A stretch of 64,000 nucleotides of DNA from a virus, in IMG/VR virus record IMGVR_UViG_3300025018_000101, positions 64,001 through 128,000 of that record. One strand, written 5' to 3'. The notes beneath the pieces are model-generated. The model had not been told where the DNA came from and searched no databases. It worked only from the letters and a program-made list of their open reading frames with translations. Positions 4,165-32,942 of this stretch are shown here, piece by piece (positions within the stretch are counted from its first letter, which is position 1; each line of letters starts with the position of its first letter). The position numbers and the translations under genes were made by a program.

Positions 4165-5040
4165 ATGAACGGTGTCAACGACTGGATCGCACGCGTGGAG
4201 GCCGGCCGCCAGGCGCACCCCTCGGTGCTCATGAACCGGCCTCAGGGTCGCCGCGAGGACCCCGTCACATGGGGGGCCTCAACGCACTACGGCGACAACG
4301 CCCTGGGACGCAACGGCATGGGCGCGCGCAAGCAGGCGGCCGCGGAGGAAGCGGAGGAACCGAGCCGCTGGGCCGGCGCCTGGCGCGGGCTCAAGGGCGG
4401 CCTCCGTGGCGGCGCTCTCGCGGGGGGGCTCGCTGGCGCGGGCTCGGGTCTCGTCCACAGCATCGCCGAAGGAGACGCGGGGAGTGCTCCCGCCTACGCA
4501 CTGTTCGGTGGCCTCGGCAGCGGCATCGTTGGGGGTCTCGCAGGCATGGGATACGGGGCCATCCTGGGCGCGGGCTACCCGGACCCTGCCGCGGAGAAGG
4601 ACCTGCCGTGGTACAGGAGCCCCGCGGTCGCGGGTGCCGTGCTTGGGACGGGCATCGGAACCGCTCGGGGCGTGAAAGGGCTGCTCGACAAGAAGCATGA
4701 CTGGGGGGCCGCTGCCGAGGGCGCAGCACTGTCCGGCGCGATCGCCGCCGGCGCTGGCTTGGGCGTCAGTAAGGCCAACGAGCGCTACCTCGCCCAGCAG
4801 GCGGAGAAGTCTGCCTTCGTGGGCGCGGTCGCCCGCAAGCTCGTCTCCAGCCTCGGCGGGAGGGCCCTGGGGACTGCGGGCGCTCAGGGGGCCGCTGCCG
4901 TCGGCGAGGGCCTGGCGACCAAGGCGGCCCCGAGCCTGCTCCGCAAAGCCACCGCCCCCGTGCTCTCGGCCGCGTCGCTCGGCTCGTCCATGGCGACGAT
5001 GCGCCCGACGGCTGCCACCTTCGCTCCGGTGAAGTACTGA
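4165..5040 (+). CDS. Glycine-zipper membrane-type protein with KxA motifs, located between the RNAP genes
   Basis: GGAGG RBS; GxxxG-rich hydrophobic segments between KQA and KSA; TGATG overlap with next gene. Confidence 0.8.
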   Translation: MNGVNDWIARVEAGRQAHPSVLMNRPQGRREDPVTWGASTHYGDNALGRNGMGARKQAAAEEAEEPSRWAGAWRGLKGGLRGGALAGGLAGAGSGLVHSIAEGDAGSAPAYALFGGLGSGIVGGLAGMGYGAILGAGYPDPAAEKDLPWYRSPAVAGAVLGTGIGTARGVKGLLDKKHDWGAAAEGAALSGAIAAGAGLGVSKANERYLAQQAEKSAFVGAVARKLVSSLGGRALGTAGAQGAAAVGEGLATKAAPSLLRKATAPVLSAASLGSSMATMRPTAATFAPVKY

Positions 5041-6863
5041 TGGCCACTCGCGACAACAACAAGCACACTACGCTCGGCCGTCTGCTCATCAACGACTCGC
5101 TGCCGCCGGAGCTCCGTACGGATGAGCAGCTCGGCAAGAAACAGATCAACCGCATCCTGTCCAGCGTGGCCAGGAACACGCCCGAGCAGTACGGCTCGGT
5201 CGCCCAGAACGTGAAGCGGTCGGGCGACTACGTTGCCACGCTGGCCGGGCTCAGCGTCGGCCTTGAGGACGTCGCCCCCCAGCGTGCACGACGCGACCCG
5301 ATCGTCAAAGACGCCCTCGGCCGCTTGCGCAAGGCCACGACGGACGCCCAACGGAGAGTCATCCTGTCGGAGGCGCAGGGCAAGATGATGAAGATCACGC
5401 CCGACCACCCATCGGACATGGCGCTGATGGCAGCCGCCGGCGGCCGCGGCTCCACGGCGCAGTTGATGCGCACGGTGGCCGCACCTGTCGCGGCCGCGGA
5501 CAAGAACGGGGCGCCCCTGCCGTGGCTGATTCAGCGGTCGTACTCCGAGGGGCTCAGACCGGATGAGTCCTGGGTGGCCGGGATCGAATCCCGCAACCTC
5601 GCCATCCAGACGAAGGAGTCCGTGCAGGAGCCCGGCGCGTTCGGCAAGGTCTTGATCGCCAACATGAGCGACATGGTCATCTCGTCGGAAGACTGCGGTA
5701 CCCGCAACGGCACCATCATGCACGTCTCCGACCCGCAGCTCGTCGACCGCGTCCTGGCCGCGGCCGCCGGTCCTGTTGCCGCCGGGACCATCGTCACCGC
5801 GCAGGTCGTCCGAGACCTGCGCAAGGCCGACGTCAAGGACGTCAAGGCCAGGACCCCCCTGACGTGCGAGATGGGCTCCGGCGTGTGCTCGGTATGTATG
5901 GGCGCCGACGAGTGGGGCAAATTGCCCCGTCTGAACACGAACGTCGGTGTCCGCGCCGCCCAGGCCATGAGCGAGCCCCTGACGCAGTTCGCCCTCTCCG
6001 CCAAGCACGGGGCGGGGACACTGAGTGGCGCCGGTAGGCCCTCCATGCAGGGCCTGACGGGCTTGAAGAACTTCCTCGACTTCCCGAAGTCGTTCTCTGA
6101 CCGAGCGATTCTGACGAGCCGGACCGGCGTGGTCACCCGCGTGGCCAAAGCCCCCCAGGGCGGGTGGTACGTCGACGTCGACCGCGTCGAGCACTACCTG
6201 TCGCCGCGGACGCCTCCGACGGTTCATCAGGGGCAGCACGTGGACGTCGGCGACGTACTGTCCGAGGGCGTCCCGACGCCAGACGACGTCGTACGGCTCA
6301 AGGATATGGGGGCAGGCCGGCAGCACGTCGCCGACGTCGTGCACGGCATCTACGCCGCCCAGGGGGCGAACCTTGACAAACGCCACATGGAGCTGCTCGC
6401 CAAGAGCCACCTGAACTGGGTGCGCGTAGTCGACGACCCCGACGGCGACCTGCTGCCGGGCGAGATCGTGCCTTACTCCTCGACGATGAGCCGCTACGGC
6501 GAGAGCAACACCGAGATGGCCGTGCAGGCCGCCACGGGCAAGGTCCTGTCCGTGCCAGCGCTTCAGTACACGGCAGGCACCACCCTGACGCCGCAGATCG
6601 TGGCGTCGCTCAAGGGTGGCGGTGTGTCGAAAGTGCGTGTATACAATGGGAACCTCAGGACTCGTCCTGTCGTCAAGTCCCTTACGCGGAGCCCGCTGCT
6701 CGATGCGCGCTGGATGAGGCGGCTCGGGCACCGGTACCTGAAGAAGTCTCTTGTCGAGGGAGCGGCTGCTGGCGATGAATCATCGATCCACGACACAGAC
6801 CCTATCGCCGCCTACGCTTACGGGGCGGAGTTCGGGGACAATCCCTCTGGCGTTGGCTATTGA
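5040..6863 (+). CDS. rpoC: RNA polymerase beta' C-terminal half (bridge helix, second Zn site, trigger loop)
   Basis: TTLGRLLIN, GGRGSTAQL, SYSEGL, EDCGT...RTPLTC...GVCSVCMG, VGVRAAQAMSEPLTQFALSAKHGAG, DKRHMELL. Confidence 0.93.
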   Translation: MATRDNNKHTTLGRLLINDSLPPELRTDEQLGKKQINRILSSVARNTPEQYGSVAQNVKRSGDYVATLAGLSVGLEDVAPQRARRDPIVKDALGRLRKATTDAQRRVILSEAQGKMMKITPDHPSDMALMAAAGGRGSTAQLMRTVAAPVAAADKNGAPLPWLIQRSYSEGLRPDESWVAGIESRNLAIQTKESVQEPGAFGKVLIANMSDMVISSEDCGTRNGTIMHVSDPQLVDRVLAAAAGPVAAGTIVTAQVVRDLRKADVKDVKARTPLTCEMGSGVCSVCMGADEWGKLPRLNTNVGVRAAQAMSEPLTQFALSAKHGAGTLSGAGRPSMQGLTGLKNFLDFPKSFSDRAILTSRTGVVTRVAKAPQGGWYVDVDRVEHYLSPRTPPTVHQGQHVDVGDVLSEGVPTPDDVVRLKDMGAGRQHVADVVHGIYAAQGANLDKRHMELLAKSHLNWVRVVDDPDGDLLPGEIVPYSSTMSRYGESNTEMAVQAATGKVLSVPALQYTAGTTLTPQIVASLKGGGVSKVRVYNGNLRTRPVVKSLTRSPLLDARWMRRLGHRYLKKSLVEGAAAGDESSIHDTDPIAAYAYGAEFGDNPSGVGY

Positions 6864-8319
6864 CCGTAGCCGCGGCAAGGAGGCAGGGATCGCGGACATG
6901 ATGGCGCGGGTCAAGACCCTCGCGCAGGGGACGCGCCCCATGGAGCTGGTGGACCGGGCACAGTCGGCCCTCCGCGCGCTACCGGCGGGCAAGCAGCTCT
7001 TCGGCCGTGGTGCCCTCAGCCAGTTCATCCCAAAGTCGCAGCAGGTAGTCTCGCGCCTGGGCGCGTTCGACGACCACCTCTATGAAGCCAAGAAGATCGT
7101 GGCCGACTTCGAGAGGGCCGGCGTCCGGCCCCCGCCCGGACTGATCGGGCCCAACAACGAGGTGGACCTCGACCTGCTCCGCAAGCTGACCCCCTCCATG
7201 CCCGGCCTCGGCATCGGGGAGCGCATCACCCGGGCGGTGACGGGTGGACCGAAGGTCGACAAGCTGAAGGCAACTGCCACCGAGGCCGAGGCGCGCCTCG
7301 CTCAGTTCTCCAAGGCCGGGCCCCGAGACGCGTCCGAGGCCGCCACGCGCACGCACGCCGCGCAGTTGCGCCAGCTCGAGGCAGAGGCCGCGCAGGCACG
7401 CCAGCTCCACGAGATCAACGCCAGCGGCGTCTCGATGTCGCCGCAAGCCCTCTCGCAAATGCAGGCGATTCGGGCAGCCGGCCACGACATCTCGCCGCAG
7501 GAGTTCCAGCAGCTCGCCCGGGTCCGAGGCGACATCCGGTCGGGCGGCCGCGAGGCCAAAGACATGGTCATCGGCGAGGCGCCGCTGGAGGTCACGCGCC
7601 AGCGGTACATCCAGGGCGGCCTCATCGGTCCAGGCGGAGTACTGCTCGGGGACATGGCGCCGAACGTCGCTCTCCAACGGGTGGCGAAGAGGACGTGGGA
7701 CGCGGCCAAGGCGGGAGACCTCGCGACCTTCGAGAAGGAGCTCAAACCCACTCTCGGCCGTGGCCTCGGCTACGCCCTCGGCGCCGGGTTCACGTACGGC
7801 ATGATCCCGGGCAGCGCCAAAGACACCTACGACATGGCCCAGGAGTCAGGGGAGAGCCCTGGCAGGGCCGTGGCGGCCAACCTCGCGGGCTCGGTGCTGA
7901 ACGTGGTCTCGTCGCCGCTCGGCATGGGACAGATGCTGCTCTACGACCCGGCCATGAAGCTCGTCAATCGCGGCTTCGGCACCAAGAGCTACGACGAGAT
8001 GTCTCAGGCCGTGGCGAACCGGGCCGTGGCGCAGCAAGCGACTACCCGGGCGTCTGCGGCCACGTCCGCGTTTCCGGGGCGCGCCCGCGCGGCTGCACCA
8101 CCCGCAACCGGGGCCCCTATGGCGCCGCAGGGCGCTGCGCCTACGCCCCCTATGCCCCTCCTTCGCGCACCCGGTGGTGCCGCCCCGGCCTATCCAGCGA
8201 CACCCGCACCCGCCGTACCCCGGCCGTCGCTACCCACACCGCCTGTACTCGCGCCGCAGCGGCCGCCCACGTTGAGCGGCCCTCGGCCTGTTATTGTACC
8301 GCCACGTCAACCCATGTAG
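6853..8319 (+). CDS. Hypothetical head-region protein with hydrophobic Gly-rich segments and Pro/Ala-rich tail (start TTG 6853 or ATG 6898)
   Basis: Long ORF with typical codon usage filling the gap; start ambiguous. Confidence 0.75.
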   Translation: MAIDRSRGKEAGIADMMARVKTLAQGTRPMELVDRAQSALRALPAGKQLFGRGALSQFIPKSQQVVSRLGAFDDHLYEAKKIVADFERAGVRPPPGLIGPNNEVDLDLLRKLTPSMPGLGIGERITRAVTGGPKVDKLKATATEAEARLAQFSKAGPRDASEAATRTHAAQLRQLEAEAAQARQLHEINASGVSMSPQALSQMQAIRAAGHDISPQEFQQLARVRGDIRSGGREAKDMVIGEAPLEVTRQRYIQGGLIGPGGVLLGDMAPNVALQRVAKRTWDAAKAGDLATFEKELKPTLGRGLGYALGAGFTYGMIPGSAKDTYDMAQESGESPGRAVAANLAGSVLNVVSSPLGMGQMLLYDPAMKLVNRGFGTKSYDEMSQAVANRAVAQQATTRASAATSAFPGRARAAAPPATGAPMAPQGAAPTPPMPLLRAPGGAAPAYPATPAPAVPRPSLPTPPVLAPQRPPTLSGPRPVIVPPRQPM

Positions 8320-8371: not shown

Positions 8372-9460
8372 ATGAGCAGCCTCTCCCTGACCAAGATCGC
8401 CTTTGCCCGCGGCGTTGCCAATTACCTCCAGGTGAACGGTCTGACGCGCTTCCCTGACGAGGCCCACATCAAGGCGGCCTCGACGTACGTCGCCGAGCGC
8501 GTGATGCGGGCCGACCCTCTGGACACCGCGTACACCCCCACGGATGCGCAACGCGTCGCCGAGGGGGTCTACAAGGTGAGCCAGGCGTACGCCAGGACCG
8601 GCAAGGTCGCGGCCGCCGGTGCTCCCGTGGCCGCTATCCGGACCCACGACGCCGCCTACGGCGACCTCATCCGGTGGGCGTACAAGACCGCCATGGACGA
8701 GAGCGACAACGGCGGCGGTCTCGTGGCGACGAGCCCCGAGCAGAACTCGCCGGCGAACGCCTCGACGCTACTGGGTCAGATCGAGAACAGCGAGCGTCCC
8801 GAGGGCTATGCGACCGTCCCGATGGGTGGCGCGAACATCCAGGACACCCCGTCGTCGGCGATCATCGGCACCGAGATGCCCGCCCCGGGCCAGGACGCCG
8901 GTACCGTGGCCGGTGGCGCCACCAACTCGCTGCAGCAGGTCTCCGACAAGGAGGCCCGCGCGCGGGGTCGCGCTCCCCTGTCCAGCCTCGAGCGCCTGCT
9001 GCGGAAGGTGGCCGAGGGTGAGAGCGACAACGGAGGCGGTCTCGTGGCGACGAGCCCCGAGCAGAACTCGCCGGCGAACGCCTCGACGCTGCTGGGTCAG
9101 ATCGAGAACAGCGAGCGTCCCGAGGGCTATGCGACCGTCCCGATGGGTGGCGCGAACATCCAGGACACCCCGTCGTCGGCGATCCTCGGCACCGAGATGC
9201 CCGCCCCGGGCCAGGACGCCGGTACCGTGGCCGGTGGCGCCACCAACTCGCTGCAGCAGGTCTCCGACAAGGAGGCTGCTGATCGGCGCTTCCTGGCGCT
9301 CAGCGCTGAGATCCTCCCGTGGCTGCCGCGCAACCTGACGGCGGCCGAGAAGGTGGCCGAGTGCCAGGCGTACGTCAACGCGTCGCCGTCGGCGCGTCTG
9401 CTCCACCGGAGCCTGCGCGCTCAGGAGTCCAAGCAGGCCTCGGCGCGCTCGCAGTACTGA
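8372..9460 (+). CDS. Putative internal head/scaffold-like polyprotein with two ~85-aa repeats
   Basis: AGGAG RBS before ATG 8372; 10 Lys, of which 9 are KxA and 1 is KxS; internal duplication. Confidence 0.85.
   Translation: MSSLSLTKIAFARGVANYLQVNGLTRFPDEAHIKAASTYVAERVMRADPLDTAYTPTDAQRVAEGVYKVSQAYARTGKVAAAGAPVAAIRTHDAAYGDLIRWAYKTAMDESDNGGGLVATSPEQNSPANASTLLGQIENSERPEGYATVPMGGANIQDTPSSAIIGTEMPAPGQDAGTVAGGATNSLQQVSDKEARARGRAPLSSLERLLRKVAEGESDNGGGLVATSPEQNSPANASTLLGQIENSERPEGYATVPMGGANIQDTPSSAILGTEMPAPGQDAGTVAGGATNSLQQVSDKEAADRRFLALSAEILPWLPRNLTAAEKVAECQAYVNASPSARLLHRSLRAQESKQASARSQY
8699..9276 (+). repeat. Direct repeat, 257 bp x2 (8699-8955, 9020-9276)
   Basis: Offset 321 bp, in frame; three substitutions seen (ggc/gga, cta/ctg, atc/ctc). 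Confidence 0.95.
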
Positions 9461-9540: not shown

Positions 9541-12099
9541 ATGTCCTTCGGAACGCCCGCCCCCGCGCCCGTGGCTGCACCCGACCCGCAGACCCTGTTC
9601 AAGGAGCGCTTCGCGCAGATGGCGCACGACAACCTCGCGTCGCGTCTGCCCGACGTCTCCGACCGCATCTCGGCCTTCGAGGTGCTGGACGTGGACGAGA
9701 ACACGGGCCAGGCCGTGGGTGTCTTCGCCTTCACGGCGGGGAACTCCGAGGTGCACATCCCGGTCATCCTCTCCGGGATTCAGATCGAGCCCATCGATGT
9801 CATGTACCTGCCGGACTCCCGGCAGTGGCTGCCGCTGACCCCGAAGTGGGTGGAGTTCCTGGACTCCGTCGACGCGAACTACCTCGGCAACGCCCGCAAG
9901 GCGCCCACGGGCCTCCAGACGGACATGGACATCCGCAACGTCATGGTGCCGCCGATGACCGGGCGGTACAGTTACGCGTCGGCGAACGGCTGCCTGCTCG
10001 ACTATCTCCGCCGCGCCGGCAACCGTGCCCGCAAGCACGCGGTGGCCGTGATGACGGCTCGGCCTACCCTGGCCAAGCTGGCGTTTGACCTGTACGGCGT
10101 CGCGGAGCTCACCGAGGCGGTGCGGCACCGCGAGCCACCTCCTGCTGTCGAGAAGATCGCCTTCTACGACGGGGACTCCGACTGGGGTGAAATGGCGACG
10201 GCCTTCGGCCAGCACGCCCCGCGGGCGATGTCCCAACTGACAGCGCTCGGGTACGCGGTCCTTGACCGGCGGCCCCGGACGAAGACCGCGGTGTACGTCG
10301 AGACCCTGTCGCGCCGCATCACGCCGAACGAGCCCGGCGTCTACCGCCTCTATCTCAAGGACCGGAGGAGCCGCCTGGCGCTGATCATCCCCGCGCCTCA
10401 GGAGCTCTCCAGGACCACCCGGTACGGCACTACGCCTACGCGCGTGACGACCCCGCCCGTCGACATCTGGGAGACGCGTCCGACGTCTCCGTCGGAGAAC
10501 GTCACCTACCTCATCTACACGCAAGATGGGGAGGCCGAGCAGGTGCGAGGGCCGATTCTGGCGCGACCGGTCGAGCGCGAGGCGGCCAACGTGGCCGCCT
10601 GGCTGGCGGAGGTCTTCGCGCGCAACGACCCGCCAGCGCCTGGTCGAGGCACGTTCCTCCGCTTCAAGGACGGCCGTCTCCAGGCCACGACGCTGATCAA
10701 GATCGTGAACGTGTCCGACCTCGGCGACGGGGAGAAGCTCATCAAGGCATACTCGAACTCAGGCGGCCAGACCTACATCCGCATGGGGCCCTCGTACCGC
10801 TACAAGCAGATCTCGGTGATGTCGACGGGCGAAGGCGCGGACGTTTGGGGCGGCGGCGGCAGCGACAGTGCCGAGGTGCGCATCCCCGACACCTACTGCT
10901 GGGTACCTGTCAAGGACCTCGACGCCGCGCTCGTCGTGCGGACGGCCAACGACGTCGTAGGCGTCGCGGCGGCCGACCCGAAGATGGCCACAGCCGTGGT
11001 CGTGCGCGTCGTCCACAACGCCGGTTCGTACCGAGTCAACGGCTCTTCGGTCGGGTCCCGCGCGAAGGCCGCTCACGTCCTGCTCCGGGACTTCGGACTC
11101 TCGGTGGTGTCGGCCGAGAACATGCTCAAGCGCGCGGCGGTCGAAGGACAGGCCGAGGCAGCCGCGATGGACTCCGCCCAGCTCGCGGCCGGCGACCAGG
11201 CCGGTGTGGTCGGCGGCGACCCCGGCATGGACCCGTCGATGATGGACCCGGCCACGATGGATCCATCGATGATGGACCCCTCGATGACGGCGCCCGACCC
11301 GACGGCGATGGCGCTGCAGTCTGCTCAACAGGAGGTCATGACGCTGATCCAGATGCAGCAGCAGGAAGTGACGCGTCGCCTCGAGGAGCAGCAGCGCATC
11401 CTTGCGGCGCAGCAGGAGGCCATCGACCTGGTGATGCAGCGTAGCCAGGAGCTCCTCGGCGGTGCGCCACCGATGGACCCGCTGAGCGCGTCCATGATGT
11501 CGCAGCAGCTCACCGACCAGAACATGGCCCAGGCGCCCCCTGCGGGCCTGGGTGGCGGCGCGGCGTACGCTGACGCCGGACCTTCGCCTGAGCCGGTGCC
11601 TGAAGGGTCCTTGGCGGCCGGGGCTCCGACGCTCGGTGCTGGCGACGTCCCGGTCGGGCCCTCGACTGGCATGCCGTCAGGCATGCCCGCGGACATGGGC
11701 CCTGGCCAGCCGGCGGGCCTTGGTCCGAGCTCCGGCATGTCCCCCGTGCCCCCGAGCACGCCGGAGGATGTGGCTCAGGCCGCCCCCGGGGCGCTGGACG
11801 CGAGCATGCTCGCGTCCATGGCCACCAGCGAGGGCCTCGAGTCCCTCGGCGTGGACTACCTGCCGCAGCTCCGGGAGGCAGTGTCGATTCTGGCCCGCAC
11901 CTTGACGGACCTTCGCATCAAGGCTCCTACGCTGCGCGACCAGCTCGGCGACAGGGCCTACGAGGAGCAGGTCGAGCGCCTTCGACGGGGTCTCACGAAC
12001 CTCGGTCCTCTGACCCTGGACCTCCACAGGAACGCGCTGCTGTTCCGCGGCTCCGGCGCGACTGCCGGCGACCAGGACTCGGTGCACGACTCGGTGTAA
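9541..12099 (+). CDS. Large hypothetical head-region protein (852 aa) with MDPSM low-complexity repeats and a Gln-rich coiled coil
   Basis: AGGAG RBS; long ORF; several KxA motifs. Confidence 0.85.
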   Translation: MSFGTPAPAPVAAPDPQTLFKERFAQMAHDNLASRLPDVSDRISAFEVLDVDENTGQAVGVFAFTAGNSEVHIPVILSGIQIEPIDVMYLPDSRQWLPLTPKWVEFLDSVDANYLGNARKAPTGLQTDMDIRNVMVPPMTGRYSYASANGCLLDYLRRAGNRARKHAVAVMTARPTLAKLAFDLYGVAELTEAVRHREPPPAVEKIAFYDGDSDWGEMATAFGQHAPRAMSQLTALGYAVLDRRPRTKTAVYVETLSRRITPNEPGVYRLYLKDRRSRLALIIPAPQELSRTTRYGTTPTRVTTPPVDIWETRPTSPSENVTYLIYTQDGEAEQVRGPILARPVEREAANVAAWLAEVFARNDPPAPGRGTFLRFKDGRLQATTLIKIVNVSDLGDGEKLIKAYSNSGGQTYIRMGPSYRYKQISVMSTGEGADVWGGGGSDSAEVRIPDTYCWVPVKDLDAALVVRTANDVVGVAAADPKMATAVVVRVVHNAGSYRVNGSSVGSRAKAAHVLLRDFGLSVVSAENMLKRAAVEGQAEAAAMDSAQLAAGDQAGVVGGDPGMDPSMMDPATMDPSMMDPSMTAPDPTAMALQSAQQEVMTLIQMQQQEVTRRLEEQQRILAAQQEAIDLVMQRSQELLGGAPPMDPLSASMMSQQLTDQNMAQAPPAGLGGGAAYADAGPSPEPVPEGSLAAGAPTLGAGDVPVGPSTGMPSGMPADMGPGQPAGLGPSSGMSPVPPSTPEDVAQAAPGALDASMLASMATSEGLESLGVDYLPQLREAVSILARTLTDLRIKAPTLRDQLGDRAYEEQVERLRRGLTNLGPLTLDLHRNALLFRGSGATAGDQDSVHDSV

Positions 12100-12840: not shown

Positions 12841-13761
12841 ATGAGCATGCACGACACGATGGTGGAGACGTCCCGGAGGGTCATCGACGCGTTCGATGCG
12901 AAGGGCATCCCCCTGACCGACGGCGTGATCAAGGAGGCTCGGGAGCTAAATTTTAGCCCCGAGCAGACGGAGAAGCTGCTGCAGTTCGTCAACGTCGGCG
13001 CCCACCTGCGCAAGTTCTCCGCGGCCACCGGCCCCGACCGCGTGGTGGAGTTTGACGTCGCTCAACCCTCCGAGGTCATGGCCGCGCTCTTTCCTGCGCG
13101 CCTCGCCGTCAAGGCTGCGGCCGCGCCGCTGACCAGCGTTGACAACTTCGACGCGTCCTACGACTACTGGGGGCCCGCGCCCAAGGCGAGGCGGCGCTCC
13201 AAGGTCGCAGGGGACGGCGGCATGGACGACGACGACGACTGCGAGGACGACTGCGAGGTCGACTACGGAGGTAGCGACGACGACGACGACGACGACGAGG
13301 GGGAGGAGGAAGGCGCCGAGGAGTCCACGGCCGCCGACTACGCCCCGGTGGACGAGGCGGCGTTCCGCCGTCTGCTCGACTCCGCGTCCAAGACTGCTGC
13401 GGACCTCAAGAACGCCGCTCACATCGCGTCCTTCCGTTACGAGGACGCGGTCGGCGTCCTGGTCACGGCCGTGAGCCGCGGGGCTATCTCGTCAGAGAAG
13501 ATGGCGCAGGATCTCCACGCGCTGCACGGCCGGGCGGGGGTGGAAGTGGCCGGCGCCGTTTTCAAACGCCTGCGCCAGGAGCACCTGCCGAGCAAGACGG
13601 CGTCCCTGGCGCCCTCCGCGGGCGTGGTGTTGTCCCACCCGACCCACGGGCTCATGCAGGCGGCGGTTGCCGCAGCGGATGACCTCCTTGTGAAGGTCTC
13701 GGCGTGGCAGTACCACCACGGCCAGGTCAGGCAACTCGCCGTGAAGTTGGGGTACCGCTGA
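12841..13761 (+). CDS. Hypothetical head-region protein with acidic Asp/Glu tract and KxA motifs
   Basis: 306 aa; D/E tract lies between KVA and KTA; TGATG overlap downstream. Confidence 0.85.
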   Translation: MSMHDTMVETSRRVIDAFDAKGIPLTDGVIKEARELNFSPEQTEKLLQFVNVGAHLRKFSAATGPDRVVEFDVAQPSEVMAALFPARLAVKAAAAPLTSVDNFDASYDYWGPAPKARRRSKVAGDGGMDDDDDCEDDCEVDYGGSDDDDDDDEGEEEGAEESTAADYAPVDEAAFRRLLDSASKTAADLKNAAHIASFRYEDAVGVLVTAVSRGAISSEKMAQDLHALHGRAGVEVAGAVFKRLRQEHLPSKTASLAPSAGVVLSHPTHGLMQAAVAAADDLLVKVSAWQYHHGQVRQLAVKLGYR

Positions 13762-17243: not shown

Positions 17244-18002
17244 ATGACACAGCCCTTGTACCTGACCCGACTGCTCCAGAAGACCGCCGCCCGCAAGGAA
17301 GAGCCGGCGTGGGACCCCGCCATGGAGGTCGACCTGACGCCGGCCGAGCAGGCGCGGTTTGACAGGGCCGCCGCCGAAGAGGCGCGGCGCGGCGGCTACG
17401 CCGGCGGCCTCATCGGCGCAGGTGCTGGCGCGCTGATGGGCGGTGCCGGCGCCGCCGCCTGGGGCCGCTCGAGGGGTCACGGCCTCGGCCGTGTCGTGGG
17501 CGAGGGAGCGCTCGGAGCGCTTGGCGGCGCAGCGGCTGGGTTCTTCGAAGGAGACGTAGCGGGTGGAGCGGTCGGCGGGCTCTCCATGTACGCGGACCGG
17601 GACTCAAAGCCGAACTTGCGCGACCAGTACGGATTTGGAGCGGCCCTCCCTGCGGGCTTCGCCGGGGGTCTCATGGGCGCTGGCGCCGGTGCTGTTGGTG
17701 CGCACGAACTGTTACGGGGCGCGCCGGCGCGGATCCTGGTGCCGGCTACGCTGGTGGGCGGCGGTCTGGGCGCCCTGGCTGGCGGAGCCTTGAGCGGGCT
17801 CTCCGGGTACGGCGCGGGCTACGGGCTGGGTCTGGTGCGCGAGGGTATGGACGCCGCCACGGGGTCGAGGCCGCCAGCCAACCCGCTCGAGGGCATCGAC
17901 ACGGTCGCCAGGGAGCGGGCCGTCGAGGAGTACCTCGCCAACGGAGGCAAGGAGGCTTCGGCCGCCCCCGTCTATCTCAATCGCCTGCTGCGGAGGCTGT
18001 AG
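17244..18002 (+). CDS. Glycine-zipper membrane-type protein, copy 2
   Basis: Identical translation to 16328..17086. Confidence 0.85.
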   Translation: MTQPLYLTRLLQKTAARKEEPAWDPAMEVDLTPAEQARFDRAAAEEARRGGYAGGLIGAGAGALMGGAGAAAWGRSRGHGLGRVVGEGALGALGGAAAGFFEGDVAGGAVGGLSMYADRDSKPNLRDQYGFGAALPAGFAGGLMGAGAGAVGAHELLRGAPARILVPATLVGGGLGALAGGALSGLSGYGAGYGLGLVREGMDAATGSRPPANPLEGIDTVARERAVEEYLANGGKEASAAPVYLNRLLRRL

Positions 18003-19975
18003 TGGCGCACGACAAGGCCATCGAGTTCGGTCAGTACGCCCCGACAGGCGAGCCGTCGATGCAGGTCATCGACCGGCGCGACGTTGGCCTGCGGAAGTAC
18101 GCCTCGGCCGATGTGGAATCACTTGAGGTCTTGCGCACCGCGCCGTCCCTGCCCGGCCACACCATGGCGCTCGTCCTGGCGATGACCGCCTACGAGTTCT
18201 ACGGCTTCAACCGCAACGGCGACGGCTTCCACGAACGGAAGTACGACGCCACCCTCTGTGACGGTCGGCGCGTGACGCTCTGTACCGACGCCGAGTCCTT
18301 GCCTGCGTGGCACAAAACCTTCGAGACGGTCGGAAAGAACTTCTTGTTCCACGCCAACAAGGACCCGAGCAAGGCGGTCGGTCGCATCGCCCGGTCGATC
18401 TACAACTGGAAAATGCACCGCGTCGAGCTCATCGTAGCGGTCGACAACGGCCGAGCCGACAAGATCGTCCAGCGCTTGCGGGACCGCGAGTACCCAGCCG
18501 TCAGTATGGGCTGTAGGATACCCGCAGACGTGTGCGTATACTGCGGCAACCGGGCACCAACTCGCGCTCAGTACTGCATCCACGTCAGCGGCCACGACCC
18601 GCGCTACGGCCTCGGCACGATCCTGGACAGCGGCATCGAGATGGGTGTGCTCAACCCGTGCCCGGAGCTCTTCGACTTGTCGTGGGTGTGGAAGCCGGCC
18701 GATCGGGTGGCGTACACCATGCGGCACCTCGACGGGGTGGGAGCGGCCTCCGACTTGCTGAAGGCTGCTTCGGAGCGGCCGTACGCCATACGCCGCCCCG
18801 GGGCGGAAACCAAGGTGGCGTCCGTGACTCCCCGTACCTCGAAGGACCAGGAGCTCGACGCCGCCAAGTGCGCCGCGCTCAAGAAGCTGTCCGAGATCGA
18901 CAAGATGGTCGACGGCGAGCTCAGCGCAGCCCCTTACGCCGGCGGCACGCCGGCGGTCATGAAGGCGCTGGCGCAGTCATACGCGAAGGACTTCGAGCCT
19001 GTCGGTGACGACGTCATCGAGGAGATGGCCCGGCGTCCGCTCCGTGACAGCGTGGCGACGTTCTCGTCTATGGACATGTCGCCGTCGGCCGACGAGCTGC
19101 TCCGCCTCTTCTCTCACTGGTCCGGAGGTGGGTCGGACGACGTCCAGGCGGTTCCGGTGGGCTCCATCCGCAGGGTCATCCTCCGTGTGTTCGGCGACAG
19201 TCCCGACCTCGTGGACGTCTGTCAGGGCGCGGCCGGGGTGGGGGTGGGGGCGGCGCCGGGGGACGCGAGCTTGAAGCTCGCGAGCCTGCTCGCGCCGATG
19301 ATGGAGAAGCGCGCACTCGCTGGCGACCTCCTGATGCGCAAGTACGTCCCGGAGAACGCGGGGGTGTGGACGGGACTGGTCGGAGGGGACCCCGGAGCCG
19401 CGTACTACGGCCGGGCGCAGCAACCCCTGCACGCCACCGACCCCTCCACGGGGGACCGCTACGCCACGACGCGTAACGTCGCCGAGCAGACCGACTTGAA
19501 CAACGTCAAGCACAAGGCCCTCGAGGCCGGCGTCCTGGCGGGGGCCACGGGCATCGGCGTCGGCGCGATGAGTCTGATGGGCCGGAAGAACAAGGCGCTT
19601 CGCGTCGCGCGATGGCCGGTGGGAGCTGTCGGCATGGGCCTGGCGGGGTACGCTGGCCTGCGCAAGATCCCCGAGTTCAAGACCGACGAGGGCGTGTCGG
19701 TACCGCACAACACGCCCATGTCCAAGATGAGCGCAGCCGACACCGACGCCGGGCTGTACCTGATGGCAGCGGCCGCTGGCGGCCGGCGTCACTTCGCGTT
19801 TGAGAAGAGCGCGGAGGCGGAGCTCGACAGACTCCGTTCGCAACTTGTATACACGGACCCTTCGGGGTACTCACGTTTGCGTGCCTCGTCTTCGGAGTTC
19901 CTCTCGAAGGTGTCCGAGGCGCTTGTGCGAGCCGTGCGCCGCTGCGGGCTTGCGCCTTCGATTCGACCGACGTAG
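18002..19975 (+). CDS. Prohead (capsid maturation) serine protease with Zn-finger insert and long C-terminal extension
   Basis: NRNGDGF, FLFHANKDPSKAVGRI, VELIVAVD, VSMGC followed by CVYC...CIH, FDLSWVWKPADRVA; located upstream of the capsid gene. Confidence 0.8.
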   Translation: MAHDKAIEFGQYAPTGEPSMQVIDRRDVGLRKYASADVESLEVLRTAPSLPGHTMALVLAMTAYEFYGFNRNGDGFHERKYDATLCDGRRVTLCTDAESLPAWHKTFETVGKNFLFHANKDPSKAVGRIARSIYNWKMHRVELIVAVDNGRADKIVQRLRDREYPAVSMGCRIPADVCVYCGNRAPTRAQYCIHVSGHDPRYGLGTILDSGIEMGVLNPCPELFDLSWVWKPADRVAYTMRHLDGVGAASDLLKAASERPYAIRRPGAETKVASVTPRTSKDQELDAAKCAALKKLSEIDKMVDGELSAAPYAGGTPAVMKALAQSYAKDFEPVGDDVIEEMARRPLRDSVATFSSMDMSPSADELLRLFSHWSGGGSDDVQAVPVGSIRRVILRVFGDSPDLVDVCQGAAGVGVGAAPGDASLKLASLLAPMMEKRALAGDLLMRKYVPENAGVWTGLVGGDPGAAYYGRAQQPLHATDPSTGDRYATTRNVAEQTDLNNVKHKALEAGVLAGATGIGVGAMSLMGRKNKALRVARWPVGAVGMGLAGYAGLRKIPEFKTDEGVSVPHNTPMSKMSAADTDAGLYLMAAAAGGRRHFAFEKSAEAELDRLRSQLVYTDPSGYSRLRASSSEFLSKVSEALVRAVRRCGLAPSIRPT

Positions 19976-20015: not shown

Positions 20016-20717
20016 ATGTCTAAGCAAATGACCATCGAGCAGGCCCTCTCGGCGCTTCAGGGCGCGTCCGACCCGAAGACGGCCGCGGCCCATACACCTG
20101 GGGCGGCCGGCAACAACGTCTACCAGGCGCAGGCCGCGGTGTCCGCGTCGGCGCAGAATCTCCAGAAGGTCGCGGGCGCTCCTGGCCTCCAGCAGGGCAG
20201 CGCCCAAGTGGACGCTGACGTCCTGCTCAAGATCGCCAGTCGCATCGCGGCCGCCGAGGAGCAGGCCATCGTCGCCGAGGGTTCCGCCCTTGGTGCGGCC
20301 ATCTTCGACGGCTTCATGAAGGCGGCCGGTTCGACCATCCACGCGGTGGACCAGCACGCGCCCCAGTACCGTCCGGCTCGCCAGCAGACGATCGACGACG
20401 TCGCTTACAAGGTGGCGTCGGCCTCGGCGGCCGACGCGTGGGACGTCATCGACGCGCTGCAGCCGCCGGCTCGCCAGCAGACGATCGACGACGTCGCTTA
20501 CAAGGTGGCGTCGGCCTCGGCGGCCGACGCGTGGCAGGCCCTCGACGCGCTCGGCGCTCCTTCCGAGAGTCGGGCCTACCAGATGAAGGTCGCGGCGGCT
20601 GAGCGGCAGGAGTTCTCGGAGGGTCTGGTGAGCGGTCTCGACAAGGTCGCCGAGTTCTGTGCGGCCGCGTTCGAGCAGGGCAACGAGCTGGCCGCGGCGG
20701 CGCTCGCTCCGCGCTAG
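20016..20717 (+). CDS. Putative scaffold/internal head protein, Ala-rich and helical
   Basis: AGGAG RBS before ATG 20016; 8 of 9 Lys are in KxA. Confidence 0.8.
   Translation: MSKQMTIEQALSALQGASDPKTAAAHTPGAAGNNVYQAQAAVSASAQNLQKVAGAPGLQQGSAQVDADVLLKIASRIAAAEEQAIVAEGSALGAAIFDGFMKAAGSTIHAVDQHAPQYRPARQQTIDDVAYKVASASAADAWDVIDALQPPARQQTIDDVAYKVASASAADAWQALDALGAPSESRAYQMKVAAAERQEFSEGLVSGLDKVAEFCAAAFEQGNELAAAALAPR
20373..20534 (+). repeat. Direct repeat, 69 bp x2 at 93 bp spacing
   Basis: 20373-20441 equals 20466-20534; encodes PARQQTIDDVAYKVASASAADAW. Confidence 0.95.
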
Positions 20718-22565: not shown

Positions 22566-23507
22566 ATGAGCATGGGCGGTTACCAGGGGTACCAGACCGA
22601 GACCCCGAAGATCAGCGAGGCCCAACTGGCGGCGACGTGGCTTGGCCTCCTCGACGGCGGTCCTCACCAGAAGGAGGCGTCCGAGAGGACCAACTCCTTC
22701 ATCCGCGACAAGATGCGCGAGAAGTCGTTCGCGCGCCTCATCCTGACTCCGCAGACGCTGGGCGACGAGGAGGTCGACCGCCGGGTCGAGAGCGATCTCC
22801 CGATCAAGATCGTCGAGAAGGAGCCGGACTCCCGCGCGACGTTCGTGACGTTCAAGGGCGCGGGCCCTCGCGCCTGGATCAAGGGTCAGCGGTACGCGGT
22901 GCACTTCGGCTACATCTCCAGCCAGCGGTGGCGGAAGAACAAGCTCGAACTGATGACCTCGCGCACCGACCTGAAGGAGCTCCTGGCGGACAACGCCGTC
23001 AAGGACTGCGCCGCCCAGGAGGATGGCAAGTTCCTCGAGACGGCGCTGGAGATCACGGCGGCCGCGGCGGCCACCCAGGTCATCAACTTCACGTCCCGCC
23101 TGTCGAAGGACGGGATCGTGTCCGGCATCCAGGCGATGCTGGCGAACCAGATCCCCGCCGGGGTGATGCTGTGCACGCAGCAGCTTTGGTGGGACCTCGC
23201 GCGTCTCCAGGCCAACAACATCGGCGACCCGGCGACGGACCGCCTGTGGCAGAACGGCGTGGAGAAGACCGAACTGTTCGGGATGCGCTGCATCACGACG
23301 ATCAAGAACGACATCGTCGACCCGAACGACCTCTGGATCTTCGCGCCCGAGCAGTACCTGGGGAACTTCTTCCTCCTCCAGGACGCCACCTTGTTCATCA
23401 AGCAGGAGGGCCCCGAGATCATGTTCTACGTGTACGAAGCCCCGGGTATCGGCTTCGGCAACACCAAGGGCATCATCCGGATCCGCTTCAACCGCGCCGT
23501 GGCGTAA
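22566..23507 (+). CDS. Major capsid protein (compact, HK97-type fold inferred)
   Basis: AGGAG RBS; 313 aa; FIRDKMREKSFARLIL...IKIVEKEPDS...AQEDGKF...YEAPGIGFGN; follows protease/scaffold genes and precedes a hairpin. Confidence 0.8.
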   Translation: MSMGGYQGYQTETPKISEAQLAATWLGLLDGGPHQKEASERTNSFIRDKMREKSFARLILTPQTLGDEEVDRRVESDLPIKIVEKEPDSRATFVTFKGAGPRAWIKGQRYAVHFGYISSQRWRKNKLELMTSRTDLKELLADNAVKDCAAQEDGKFLETALEITAAAAATQVINFTSRLSKDGIVSGIQAMLANQIPAGVMLCTQQLWWDLARLQANNIGDPATDRLWQNGVEKTELFGMRCITTIKNDIVDPNDLWIFAPEQYLGNFFLLQDATLFIKQEGPEIMFYVYEAPGIGFGNTKGIIRIRFNRAVA

Positions 23508-26025: not shown

Positions 26026-26421
26026 ATGATCAAGCTGTCGGCCCCATCATCCTACATGAACCCCCGCATCACCGACCGGGACCTCCTGGTGCCCTACACC
26101 GAGCGGGGGGTCCGCGTCGCGGCATGGTGGAAGCAGGCAAGCGCGTCGAGCAAGGGCGCGATGCTCGACGTAGCCTCCCTGCTCCCGGGCGACGACCGCC
26201 TCATGAAGGCTGCCCACTACGTCCGGTGCGCGAGGGGCGATGCTCGGCGGGCCGCGGGGCTCGTGAAGGCTGCCGTGGCGCGAGCCGGTGCCCGGGAGTG
26301 CGACGACCACCTCGACCCGGAGGTCATCTCCGTGGAAGTGGACGACGACGACGACGACATCCATCGTGCAGATATGATGGGCGACGCCGACCCCGACGAG
26401 TACGAGGAGGACTACCCGTGA
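26026..26421 (+). CDS. Hypothetical protein with KxA motifs and acidic C-terminus
   Basis: ATG 26026 after AGGA; KLS, KQA, KGA, KAA, KAA. Confidence 0.7.
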   Translation: MIKLSAPSSYMNPRITDRDLLVPYTERGVRVAAWWKQASASSKGAMLDVASLLPGDDRLMKAAHYVRCARGDARRAAGLVKAAVARAGARECDDHLDPEVISVEVDDDDDDIHRADMMGDADPDEYEEDYP

Positions 26422-27107
26422 CAGGATGGACCCCGCCGCCATCGGACCCGTACGAGGAGGCGTACCGCCGGGCCGCTATAGAGGACTTCATGGTAGCGTC
26501 CCCCGGCCCCGCGCCTCCCCCGCGGCACCCGTCCGCCCGGGAGTCGGCCGATGAAGTCGTGGCTCCCGCCAGGCGGGTGATGCGAACCGTCAAGCTGCTC
26601 GGGAAGCTCGGGGAGCATGCGGGCGGGTTCTCGGGCGACGTGCAGTTTGACATGGACAGGGCGCACGAGTTGCTCCGGGAGTCCGGGTCTGGACCGTCCG
26701 TCAACTCGTGGCGCAACGACGAGAACTCTCCCGCGTTCACCCAGCGCATGGTGCCCGGTGACACGAGCTCGAACATGGACACGTCGAGGGCAGCCCGCAC
26801 CGCGATCTCGCAGGGGTTTGACCTCGACGCCGATGGCGTGGATGTCTCGAAGACGGCGAGCTGGCGCAGGGGGTACGCGGCCGCGATGGCGGTGGCGTTC
26901 GGCAAGCTGGCCGATACGATGTCGGACCCGCTACGTGCGGGCACCGACGACCTCCGCCGGGGCGACGGGAGTGAAGAGCCGCTCGTCCCGGACCGCCGTG
27001 TAGTGGCCAACCCCAACACGCGGATGAGCACGTCACAGGCCCTGCGCAGCATCGACAACACGCCCTCGTGCAGTGACGACCCTCCCATCGAAGAGCCACT
27101 GCCGTAG
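26418..27107 (+). CDS. Hypothetical protein with KxA motifs
   Basis: GAGGAGG RBS; GTGA overlap; KLG, KTA, KLA. Confidence 0.7.
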   Translation: MTGWTPPPSDPYEEAYRRAAIEDFMVASPGPAPPPRHPSARESADEVVAPARRVMRTVKLLGKLGEHAGGFSGDVQFDMDRAHELLRESGSGPSVNSWRNDENSPAFTQRMVPGDTSSNMDTSRAARTAISQGFDLDADGVDVSKTASWRRGYAAAMAVAFGKLADTMSDPLRAGTDDLRRGDGSEEPLVPDRRVVANPNTRMSTSQALRSIDNTPSCSDDPPIEEPLP

Positions 27108-29180: not shown

Positions 29181-29236
29181 CGCGCAGGGCCTGAGTCTGA
29201 AGAAGCACCGACCTCGCGAGGGCGTCTCCTGCCTTG

Positions 29237-29265
29237 TTGCACCCGCAGCGGCTATGGCGTATCCT
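29237..29265 (+). promoter_or_regulatory. Sigma70-like promoter TTGCAC-N17-TATCCT
   Basis: Intergenic, about 40 nt upstream of the sheath ATG. Confidence 0.6.
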
Positions 29266-29306
29266 CCTGCGAGGAGCCGTAGACCGCCCACGAGGAGTCA
29301 TTCGCC

Positions 29307-32216: not shown

Positions 32217-32267
32217 CCCCGGCCGTCACACGACGACCCTTGAACTGGAAACCCCCAAGGAGTTCAC

Positions 32268-32942
32268 ATGAACCAGACCGACCACATTCTCAAGATCGCC
32301 TCGGGTATCGGCGTCCTCGACACCCTCGACCGCCGCGGCATCTCCGTCGCGTCGTTCGCCAAGACGGCCGCCTACCATCGCCATCCTGTGCTGACCGCCC
32401 TGGCCGACGACATGGCGTATGCCCTCGAGGCGGCCGAGCGTGACGGCGCCACCACCACCAAGGTGGCGCAGGTCATCAACTACAAGTACGCCAACGCTGC
32501 GGCCGAGGGCGCCGAGGAGGCTGCCGCGGCCGCCCCCGGGATGATCCGCCGGGGAATCAACGCGGTCAAGGGCCTGGGCTACTCCATCGCGGAGAACAAT
32601 CCAGCGGCAGGTCTGGCGGCGGGGGTGGGCCGCATCCAGGGCGGCTTGAGTGGCGCCAGGGACGACCTCGCCGCGGGCATGGACATCGGCCGCTTCCGCC
32701 GGGCGGGGAACGGCATCCAGATGCCTTCCACGCCGCAGGATACGGGCCTCCTGATGGTCGGCGCCGATGGCGTGGTGCCCGCCGACCCCCTGGGCGACAA
32801 CAGGGTTCGGCGTCTCGGCGCGTTCCTGGGGGCCAACCCCCGCTCTTCGGCCGCGGCCATGATGGGCGTCCCCGCCGCGGGTCTCGCGGCCGCTGGCGGC
32901 GTCGGCTACGGCGGCTACCAGTACGCCAACCGCGACAGGTAG
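32268..32942 (+). CDS. KxA-motif protein with C-terminal Gly/Ala hydrophobic segment
   Basis: AAGGAG RBS; KIA, KTA, KVA, KYA. Confidence 0.8.
   Translation: MNQTDHILKIASGIGVLDTLDRRGISVASFAKTAAYHRHPVLTALADDMAYALEAAERDGATTTKVAQVINYKYANAAAEGAEEAAAAAPGMIRRGINAVKGLGYSIAENNPAAGLAAGVGRIQGGLSGARDDLAAGMDIGRFRRAGNGIQMPSTPQDTGLLMVGADGVVPADPLGDNRVRRLGAFLGANPRSSAAAMMGVPAAGLAAAGGVGYGGYQYANRDR

Follow-up and report, generated by a model that had tools for sequence, protein, structure and literature searches.

The window analysed here is a stretch of 64,000 nucleotides (positions 64,001 to 128,000 of record IMGVR_UViG_3300025018_000101) from an uncultured phage with a genome of 155 kb and 69% GC. It comprises a block of head genes (8372-32942) in which Lys is frequently followed by Ala at the second position (Lys-x-Ala, here KxA). 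The genes are named by their start positions, and the features considered were the following, with coordinates referring to the window.

4165..5040, + strand: Gly-zipper protein between two RNA polymerase genes; three KxA (K56, K215, K253)
8372..9460, + strand: polyprotein-like head protein, 362 aa; nine KxA
9541..12099, + strand: conserved head protein, 852 aa, Arash gp218 family; KxA clustered within aa 165-248 and 481-530
12841..13761, + strand: head protein, 306 aa, Arash gp220/D69 0268 family; seven KxA
15021-16304, + strand: Gly-zipper protein; KxA at K22
16328-17086 and 17244-18002, + strand: Gly-zipper protein and its exact duplicate; K13-T-A leader, K236
18002..19975, + strand: predicted prohead maturation protease, 657 aa; PHROG head maturation protease match
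aa 38-243 of the 18002 protein, + strand: catalytic domain; AF2 core with pLDDT >90
18350-18352, + strand: His117, predicted catalytic, 100% conserved
18503-18514, + strand: SMGC with Ser168, predicted catalytic, 100% conserved
18533-18583, + strand: Cys/His cluster C178-H194, 3' of the catalytic Ser
aa 280-657 of the 18002 protein, + strand: helical C-terminal domain
18095..18103, + strand: K32-Y-A(-S), where the protease is predicted to process its own N-terminus; flank score +2.9
18761..18769, + strand: K254-A-A(-S), predicted site releasing the catalytic from the C-terminal domain; flank score +3.4
20016..20717, + strand: scaffold-like protein rich in Ala, encoded between protease and capsid; eight KxA spaced by 19-31 residues
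20729..21937, + strand: four small proteins (143, 73, 57 and 130 aa); KxA 15-28 residues from each N-terminus
22566..23507, + strand: HK97-type major capsid protein, 313 aa; PHROG major head protein match
22671-22679, + strand: K36-E37-A38, predicted end of the capsid propeptide
26026..27107, + strand: two small proteins encoded 3' of the capsid gene; 4/5 Lys of the 26026 protein in KxA
32268..32942, + strand: Gly-rich protein, 224 aa; K9-I-A leader and three further KxA

The predicted protease of the head gene block

The order of protease gene 18002, scaffold-like gene 20016, small genes and capsid gene 22566 was identical in Salmonella phage Arash and Vibrio phage D69. A sequence-only reading of this DNA had taken the 18002 product for a serine protease, and this was supported here: as modelled, the protein is a serine protease of the T4 gp21/herpes assemblin fold, with activity predicted. 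The AF2 model was aligned to T4 gp21 (5jbl) with Z 10.1 (rmsd 2.6 Å, 124 aligned residues) and to the VZV protease (1vzv) with Z 8.8, unrelated rows reaching at most 6.6 (VIA-align). Foldseek alone yielded weak herpes protease rows (E 0.05 or worse), the best being those of KSHV, EBV and HCMV. H117 and the serine of SMGC, S168, were invariant in sets of 17, 103 and 114 homologues. In a weak hhalign match (probability 7%), S168 was aligned to gp21 S140, and the ANKDP stretch beside H117 to the gp21 stretch ANVDP, three residues past H85; the His register is thus off by three in the sequence alignment. The protease had no Pfam match, and at E<=1 the entire genome contained no match to PF03420 (S77) or PF04586 (MEROPS S78, HK97 gp4 family); searches of PDB and Pfam with the protease domain returned noise only (Toxin_13, and zinc-finger entries on the Cys cluster).

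Enrichment of Lys-x-Ala in head proteins

Hand counts of lysines in KxA, on which the sequence-only reading was based, were reproduced for proteins 8372 (9/10, the tenth Lys being in KVS; p 8e-7), 20016 (8/9), 21545 (3/4, the fourth being in KAS), 32268 (4/5) and 12841 (7/14), as well as for K36-E37-A38 of the capsid protein. The protease itself carried eight motifs on 31 lysines (KYA, KPA, KAA, KVA, KCA, KLA, KRA, KSA), and the control, a 296-aa protein encoded on the minus strand (51005-51895), again gave 3/17. The enrichment persisted after correction for composition. Within the head gene block, 77 of 205 lysines had Ala at +2, compared to an Ala frequency (fA) of 0.150 (binomial p 2.3e-15), while outside the block they were 137 of 1139 (12%), compared to an fA of 0.132. 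The KxA signal is genuine and confined to head proteins (Fisher OR 4.4, p 7e-17). It was also concentrated near N-termini, occurring within the first 40 residues of 15 of the 25 head-block proteins versus 21 of 144 proteins elsewhere (OR 8.8, p 4e-6).

Head proteins contain 15-26% Ala, which could suggest an artefact of composition or helical repeats in Ala-rich, Lys-poor proteins at 69% GC. The chance of this is nevertheless negligible. Shuffling the non-redundant set within blocks of 10 or 20 residues predicted 30 KxA against 74 observed (z ~9), and local shuffles were significant for individual genes (P <5e-5 for 8372, 3.5e-4 for both 20016 and 12841, 2.3e-3 for 9541, 3.7e-3 for 26026 and 8e-3 for 32268). 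In the head block, Ala enrichment after Lys was confined to offset +2 (and weakly +4), was not displayed at +2 when R, E, D or Q occupied position 0, and ranked first among all residue-pair/offset combinations (z 8.2). The effect was also equally strong in relatives of 44-53% GC. A coiled-coil or composition artefact was ruled out by the local shuffles and by this specificity of offset and residue. A motif at DNA level was likewise discarded, since the word AAR-NNN-GC was enriched in the reading frame only (77/206, versus 0/47 and 1/10 in the other frames) and Ala codon usage was ordinary.

The sequence-only reading had cautioned that Ala-richness inflates chance matches. About 40% of the KxA within the block are chance occurrences; with ~30 of 74 sites expected by chance, roughly 45 are supernumerary. 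Sites were scored with a flank matrix trained on the loci of relatives, and head sites of the window scored 0.46 bits versus -1.54 for KxA elsewhere in the genome (p 5e-9). Protease K231, capsid K97 and all KxA of tail proteins were designated structural coincidences by their flank scores. A single KxA is therefore not diagnostic, and the proposal that the motif identifies head-internal proteins holds only where a protein carries multiple sites or its flanks score well.

The same statistic, applied to T4 gp22 as a positive control, recovered the (L/I)-x-E motif established by experiment (16/47, p 9e-5) and ranked L..E at offset 2 first. None of the known codes [LI]xE, [SAG]xE and [VLI]xA was enriched here; [LI]xE accounted for 49 of 391 Glu versus 12% expected (p 0.41), a figure that concerns motif enrichment and not enzymology, and was absent from proteins 8372 and 20016.

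Motifs had been reported at module boundaries, and this was the case in the 8372 protein; KxA also lie on either side of the protease domain and at many places along scaffold-like proteins. The 8372 protein contains two 88-aa repeat modules, each bounded by KxA (K105-T-A / K193-E-A and K212-V-A / K300-E-A); the corresponding DNA repeats (8690-8955 and 9011-9276) begin at the Ala codon of one KxA and finish at the next. Leader sites of the Gly-zipper proteins 15021 and 16328 displayed flank scores of +0.9 and +3.2, those of the small proteins 20729-21937 ranged from +0.8 to +3.4, with further KxA in some of them, and the 32268 protein reached +2.3, +3.0 and +3.2. Proteins 26026 and 26418, the latter with a KxA at K145 (flank score +3.8), are individually weaker cases without homologues. 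Membership of the 4165 protein in the motif set is doubtful (3/11 Lys in KxA, p 0.43; flank scores +1.3, +1.0 and -2.5).

Conservation among relatives and form of the motif

Megablast of the head region against phage records gave no match, and scanning viral contigs with the protease protein alone found no relative; loci were retrieved through capsid alignment. Every related locus examined, Arash and D69 among them, displayed the enrichment 5' of the capsid gene, at GC contents of 44-65%, and lacked it in the tail genes. The 32 IMG/VR loci whose sequence extended far enough upstream of the capsid gene all showed Ala at K+2 in 26-40% of cases versus an Ala content of 11-15% (p 5e-7 to 2e-19). 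On their tail side the values were 11% versus 10%. K..A at offset 2 topped all pair/offset combinations in the pooled relatives (z 41.9) and did not figure among the leading pairs listed on the tail side. Cultured phages displayed the same tendency, with lysines in KxA amounting to 10/21, 8/16 and 7/13 in Arash gp220, gp223 and gp225, and to 11/30, 10/17 and 6/10 in D69 0268, 0271 and 0273. Head proteins of hundreds of relatives are likewise rich in KxA, and the phage protease clade is large, with >4,500 clusters at 50% identity.

The conservation in homologues proposed as a check of the motif was found at individual sites of this large clade. In 37 homologues sharing 46-52% identity, capsid K36 and A38 did not vary, and both were 98% conserved across 41 loci; the capsid proteins of Arash (gp226, 36% identical to that of the window) and D69 each displayed K27-E-A at the matching place. 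The N-terminal 35 residues are fairly conserved in themselves, so that conservation of the site does not show their removal. At the K32 site of the protease, located in a segment with pLDDT <50 directly before the fold, K was conserved in 88-93%, A in 95% and S(+3) in 77-83% of relatives. A KxA a few residues past the last strand was kept in 97-100%; in the window, K254 lies within a disordered linker (242-277 in the AF2 model) and is followed by K271-V-A-S. In the 9541 protein (7/18 Lys in KxA), K530 was found as KxA in 71% of 31 relatives, and K31 of the 12841 protein was 86% conserved in its family. Proteins 8372, 20016, 21157-21545, 26026 and 32268, the richest in motifs, had no BLAST-detectable homologues in 80 loci; the site-by-site comparison therefore covered the capsid, protease, 9541, 12841 and 13761 families. 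Counterparts at the position of 20016 in Arash (gp223, gp225) and D69 (0271, 0273) were equally motif-rich.

Family-wide, Lys alone was enriched at A-2 (Arg 0.97x) and Ala alone at K+2 (S 0.80x, G 0.56x), which is why the extension to K-x-S/G suggested by the sequence-only reading was abandoned. With Leu at -2 (2.7x) and Glu at -1 (3.2x) enriched in the pooled relatives, the fuller motif reads Leu-Glu-Lys-[Thr/Val/Leu/Ile]-Ala-[Ser/Ala].

Proposed processing and known prohead proteases

We infer that the motif is cut, and by the 18002 protease: K-x-A is probably both its recognition and its cleavage motif. This reading is favoured because invariant or near-invariant KxA coincide with the known cutting positions of prohead proteases, namely the capsid N-terminus and the flanks of the protease domain. 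All cutting would take place inside the assembled prohead by this Ser/His protease, which would remove its N-terminal end at K32 and sever its C-terminal domain at K254/K271. The capsid protein would lose ~38 residues at K36-E-A, scaffold-like proteins (20016, 12841 and the small 20729-21937 products) would be chopped into peptides of 20-30 residues, and modules would be released from the polyprotein-like 8372 protein. Short N-terminal leaders would be cut off the packaged proteins 16328 and 32268 and probably off the virion RNA polymerase, whose product begins MGDWGFT-K8-L-A.

A signal for docking or capsid targeting that scaffold, portal or protease would bind, itself not scissile, any cleavage occurring elsewhere, would agree with the many KxA in short N-terminal leaders, which recall the T4 capsid-targeting sequence. 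It seems improbable, as such a signal needs no eight to ten copies along one scaffold protein and leaves those at both repeat-module borders and at both flanks of the catalytic domain unexplained; the T4 targeting leader, moreover, ends in a cleavage motif, the two roles not being exclusive. Strict Lys without Arg substitution is typical of chemically reactive lysines, and the sites could accordingly be imagined as carrying covalent modifications or cross-links (HK97-like isopeptide, acylation, methylation), with Ala as context. This is very improbable: neither a transferase nor a partner residue is evident, the capsid KxA sits in the N-terminal arm or propeptide, and sites are densest in fast-evolving, scaffold-like, probably disordered proteins and linkers rather than in the mature capsid fold.

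If the motif is cleaved, the scissile bond would rather follow Ala (P3 Lys, P1 Ala, P1' Ser/Ala), a bond after Lys being distinctly less probable. Cutting after Ala is favoured because Ala is strict, because Ser(+3) is largely kept at the N-terminal protease site and because characterised relatives all use a P3-x-P1 pattern. The bond cut by herpesvirus proteases is A|S, in agreement with this register. The SPN3US protease cleaves C-terminally to A-x-E (PMC10052503). That the 18002 protease cleaves the bond immediately following Lys (P3 Leu, P2 Glu, P1 Lys, P2' Ala) is on the whole unlikely. Leu-x-Lys is formally parallel to the T4 (L/I)-x-Glu motif. Cleavage of HK97 gp5 after Lys103 also speaks for such a register. 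Arg, however, never replaces Lys, an uncommon trait in a basic P1 pocket, and with Ala(+2) as constrained as Lys and Ser(+3) well conserved at the best site, the primed side would bear the heaviest constraints. The new N-termini would be Leu, Ile or Val, of which Leu should be destabilising in bacteria according to the N-end rule.

To our knowledge, all prohead proteases of known specificity (T4, phiKZ, 201phi2-1, SPN3US) cleave after Glu. A strict Lys-x-Ala rule would therefore represent a new specificity class in a protease clade of thousands of members, and would allow scaffold, propeptide and packaged-cargo proteins to be found by sequence alone in a sizeable and barely studied group of 120-200-kb phages with a bacterial-type virion RNA polymerase. 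Literature searches revealed neither a description of Lys-x-Ala prohead protease specificity nor published proteolysis data for these head proteins or their protease. In the Arash virion proteome the largest number of spectra came from the RNAP beta subunit; that paper and its supplement list coverage values, with no processing statement, termini or peptide list, and the phage G multi-omics paper contains nothing on cleavage. With Salmonella phage Arash and Vibrio phages D69/D148/D181 in culture, the code is directly testable.

No structure matched the catalytic domain better than T4 gp21 (MEROPS S77), and the proposed processing follows T4 logic: self-processing, removal of a capsid propeptide, many scaffold sites and short N-terminal leaders. 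It differs in its motif, Lys-x-Ala instead of (L/I)-x-Glu, in the lack of a Pfam S77 match, and in its protease, which is 657 aa long with a Cys3His cluster past the catalytic Ser and a helical C-terminal domain of 380 residues. The phiKZ gp175 and SPN3US gp245 proteases of giant phages recognise S/A/G-x-Glu (PMC10052503, PMC5694885). Common to those systems and the one proposed here are a single protease acting on many head proteins, often with several motifs per propeptide, a multisubunit RNA polymerase packaged in the virion (Arash proteome) and a self-cut behind the catalytic domain (here predicted). They depart from it by P1 Glu, [SAG]xE not being enriched here, whereas the capsid protein of the window is a small, 313-aa HK97-type protein and its RNAP is near to cellular beta/beta' (Rpb2_6, E 8.5e-47).

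Bacillus phage G gp19 and gp93 of Cali (mycobacteriophage cluster C) share the SMGC and CxxC...CxH core with the 18002 protease. In phage G gp19, KxA lie on the N-terminal (K9, K43, K50) and C-terminal (K248, K274) sides of the catalytic domain; KxA leaders are also present in the neighbouring gp20, gp21 and gp22, at K10, K10 and K3. The phage G capsid protein is devoid of KxA, and the enrichment is faint in Cali (z 3.0), which has a homologous protease domain; a strong code was thereby ruled out for the latter, and the code is not universal in the protease clade.

Herpesvirus assemblin (MEROPS S21) cleaves (V/L/I)-x-Ala|Ser at its maturation and release sites. Its fold is common with that of the 18002 protease and, if the cut follows Ala, P1 Ala, P1' Ser and the P3-x-P1 spacing would be identical, tying phage and herpesvirus protease specificities together. 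P3 is, however, strictly Lys here and aliphatic there ([VLI]xA not being enriched here), and tens of sites in ~15 proteins contrast with two sites in one precursor. A wider reading, which we consider possible but tentative, is that K-x-A marks the end of an address label and is the cutting code for all capsid cargo, cut at Ala|Ser as in herpesviruses, so that the packaged proteome of hundreds of uncultured phages could be read from sequence. Equally tentatively, this cargo would include the bacterial-type RNA polymerase, a sigma-factor polyprotein and glycine-zipper ejection proteins. Were this true, the clade would connect the capsid proteases of phages and herpesviruses functionally more closely than any other.

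The genome and its head module

The source viral contig, which contributes the window with its bases 64001-128000, was 155,236 bp long with a GC content of 69% and a genome completeness of 88% (CheckV). Altogether, 171 genes were predicted by a codon-bias caller trained on the same genome, and their starts are approximate. The closest named relatives were Salmonella phage Arash (capsid identity 36%) and Vibrio phages D69, D148 and D181. Both contig ends, situated outside the window, were made of GGCAACGGCTACGGCGAC-type repeats coding for a Gly-Asn-Gly-Tyr-Gly-Asp repeat; the assembly probably broke inside one repetitive gene, on a map that would be circular or circularly permuted.

The stretch rich in Lys-x-Ala (KxA) motifs was preceded by a fused RNA polymerase beta-beta' gene of bacterial type (Rpb2_6, E = 8.5e-47; Rpb1_2, E = 5.7e-20) and by a separate beta' C-terminal gene. 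Within positions 1-6863, beta and the N-terminal part of beta' formed one 1903-aa ORF starting 1.5 kb before the window, the C-terminal part of beta' constituted its own gene (5040-6863), and a Gly-zipper gene (4165-5040) lay between the two. Residues 168-240 of the window ORF gave a weak LAGLIDADG_3 match (E = 8e-4), below the Pfam cut-off. Two head genes were assigned by PHROG matches:

18002-19975, head maturation protease
22566-23507, major head protein

Enrichment of Lys-x-Ala in head proteins

The sequence-only reading had proposed that KxA marks head proteins cut by the protease encoded at 18002, and its hand counts of Lys in KxA were all reproduced. Among the 27 proteins of the head block (8372-32942), 77 of 205 Lys displayed Ala at +2, for an Ala content of 15.0% (p = 2.3e-15), versus 137 of 1139 in the 144 other proteins (13.2% Ala; Fisher OR 4.4, p = 7e-17). 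The block bounds were set after the data had been seen, but an effect of this strength cannot stem from that choice, and it was replicated in independent genomes. Ala was in excess after Lys at offset +2 alone, apart from a faint signal at +4, and in the head block no Ala excess at +2 followed Arg, Glu, Asp or Gln. Of all residue pairs compared at offsets 1 to 4, K..A at offset 2 came first (z 8.2); outside the block it fell slightly under expectation. Block shuffles of 10 or 20 residues, which preserve local Ala-richness, put the chance expectation at 30 KxA in the non-redundant set, where 74 were observed (z ~9). Since chance alone would produce about 30 of these 74 sites, single sites are not to be called substrates, and neither are the proteins encoded at 4165, 13761, 23582-24979 and 28041-32216.

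The DNA word AAR-NNN-GC was enriched in frame only (77/206 vs 0/47 and 1/10), and the choice among Ala codons was ordinary, so that the signal resides in the protein. Together, the offset, residue, block-shuffle and reading-frame controls ruled out a composition artefact. The same statistics recovered the experimentally known (L/I)-x-E code of T4, found in 16 of 47 Glu of scaffold gp22 (p = 9e-5), where L..E at offset 2 ranked first. The known codes [LI]xE, [SAG]xE and [VLI]xA showed no enrichment in the head block.

The second most enriched pair of the block was G..G at offset 4 (z 7.5), emanating from several GxxxG glycine-zipper proteins (4165-5040, 15021-18002, 20729-21160 and 32268-32942). 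Most of them carry a KxA leader, and they may be membrane-active ejection proteins.

The motif belongs to the clade as a whole and was equally apparent in relatives of lower GC content. Lys residues in KxA amounted to 10/21, 8/16 and 7/13 in gp220, gp223 and gp225 of Arash (53% GC), and to 11/30, 10/17 and 6/10 in 0268, 0271 and 0273 of D69 (44% GC). The capsid protein had 596 homologues in the protein collection, and an alignment of 37 of them was used to retrieve 80 IMG/VR loci. In each of the 32 loci that offered 1,500 or more residues ahead of the capsid gene, Ala stood at +2 of 26-40% of upstream Lys vs an Ala content of 11-15% (p = 5e-7 to 2e-19); on the tail side of the same loci, the values were 11% and 10%. 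In the pooled, non-redundant set, K..A at offset 2 was by far the strongest pair and offset (1,795 observed vs 693 expected, z 41.9), and it was absent from the top pairs listed downstream of the capsid gene.

Family-wide, only Ala was enriched at K+2 (2.6x; Ser 0.80x, Gly 0.56x) and only Lys at A-2 (2.6x; Arg 0.97x). The K-x-S/G variants admitted by the sequence-only reading consequently fall outside the code. The wider logo read Leu(-2) Glu(-1) Lys [Thr/Leu/Val/Ile/Glu] Ala [Ala/Ser]. A flank matrix trained on relatives alone scored KxA at 0.46 bits in the head block vs -1.54 bits elsewhere in the genome (p = 5e-9). This matrix tells likely real sites from coincidences within folded domains, with scores of +2.9 and +3.4 for protease K32 and K254, -6.2 for protease K231 and -5.4 for capsid K97; all KxA of tail proteins scored negative.

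In the 4841-8612 region of Bacillus phage G (JN638751), gp19 belonged to the same protease clade, with the same SMGC and Cys/His core, 8 of 32 Lys in KxA and KxA on both sides of the catalytic domain. Its neighbours gp20, gp21 and gp22 displayed KxA leaders at K10, K10 and K3, and capsid protein gp27 (PDB 6wkk) contained zero KxA. Mycobacteriophage Cali has the protease domain too, with at most a faint KxA enrichment.

The protease and the position of the sites

The N-terminal domain of the protease gave no sequence match in Pfam or PDB. Its AF2 model best matched T4 gp21 (5jbl; Z 10.1, rmsd 2.6 A, 124 residues), followed by the varicella-zoster protease (Z 8.8), unrelated rows reaching Z 6.6 at most; the top Foldseek rows were herpesvirus proteases with weak E-values. 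His117 and Ser168 (in S-M-G-C) were invariant in 114 representatives. A weak hhalign match placed Ser168 on gp21 Ser140, and ANKDP near His117 on ANVDP near gp21 His85. A profile search returned 4,513 clusters (50% identity), of which 2,016 had E <= 1e-30, indicating a very large clade.

Several other features of this gene were observed. An invariant, zinc-ribbon-like Cys178/Cys181/Cys192/His194 cluster directly follows S-M-G-C (18503-18583). About a quarter of the best 150 representatives (P0125, P0129, P0131 and others) were 900-1400 aa long and matched the profile in two or three stretches; many of these showed a break in the match around position 170, at SMG|C or immediately behind it, a pattern that resembles inteins inserted into the catalytic site. 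The C-terminal domain was all-helical by prediction, and its pair of long helices (aa 491-527 and 537-553; 19472-19660), which are rich in Gly, Ala and Leu, may serve as an anchor to a membrane or to the scaffold. A 916-bp unit is duplicated exactly and in tandem (16279-17195 = 17195-18111, 100% identical); it holds a glycine-zipper gene (16328-17086 = 17244-18002) together with the initial 110 nt of the protease gene. Positions 17086-17220 thus repeat the protease 5' end in truncated form, K32-Y-A included; the duplication is either very recent or an assembly artefact.

KxA sites occupy positions where prohead proteases cut. Capsid K36 and A38 were invariant in 37 homologues (46-52% identity) and present in 98% of 41 loci, and both Arash and D69 displayed K27-E-A at this place. 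In the protease family, K32-x-A-S directly precedes the fold (K 88-93%, A 95%, S 77-83%) and another KxA directly follows it in 97-100% of relatives. The full-length model placed these motifs in flanking segments (aa 1-33 and 242-277, pLDDT <50) around the catalytic core (aa 38-243, pLDDT >90). The 8372 gene contains two 266-nt repeats running from the Ala codon of one motif to the next motif, so that both 88-residue modules of its protein are bounded by KxA. The 20016 protein, whose gene separates those of the protease and the capsid protein and thus occupies the place expected of a scaffold gene, carries eight KxA spaced by 19-31 residues. Such repetition, with 8-10 copies along one protein and copies flanking modules and the protease domain on either side, is left unexplained if KxA is a pure docking or targeting tag.

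KxA lay within the first 40 residues of 15/25 head-block proteins vs 21/144 elsewhere (OR 8.8, p = 4e-6). The most motif-rich proteins had no detectable homologues in relatives, and Arash and D69 proteins at matching positions were equally motif-rich; KxA is retained while the remaining sequence drifts. In alignable families, the motif Lys was more conserved than other Lys. A strict Lys is compatible with a modification or cross-link site, but this agrees poorly with KxA being concentrated in fast-evolving proteins rich in linkers.

Predicted processing and known prohead proteases

The most likely processing scheme comprises predicted cuts only and was drawn from sequence pattern, position, conservation and fold. 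The protease would be co-assembled into the prohead and would then cut at KxA, trimming itself and freeing its own catalytic domain. It would remove the capsid propeptide, reduce scaffold-like proteins to short peptides able to exit the shell, release modules from the 8372 protein and strip packaged proteins of their leaders. The RNA polymerase gene product begins with MGDWGFT-K8-L-A (flank score +3.9) and Arash gp206 with MP-K3-S-A; given these leaders, the virion RNA polymerase may also be a substrate. In the Arash virion proteome, the RNA polymerase beta subunit was the protein with the highest number of spectra (PMC10585845).

The favoured scissile bond follows Ala, with Lys at P3, Ala at P1 and Ser or Ala at P1'. 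This agrees with the P3-x-P1 pattern of characterised relatives such as the SPN3US protease, which cuts C-terminal to A-x-E (PMC10052503). It is also supported by Ala being as strict as Lys, and by Ser following Ala in ~80% at the best-conserved site. Alternatively, cleavage may occur after Lys, in a Leu-x-Lys register.

Our literature search found no description of a Lys-x-Ala prohead protease specificity. The bond cut by the herpesvirus protease is Ala|Ser, which would be mirrored by the favoured Ala|Ser/Ala cut after KxA in this phage. The system belongs to a known kind of machine, the prohead proteases guided by short linear motifs, and its predicted code is new.
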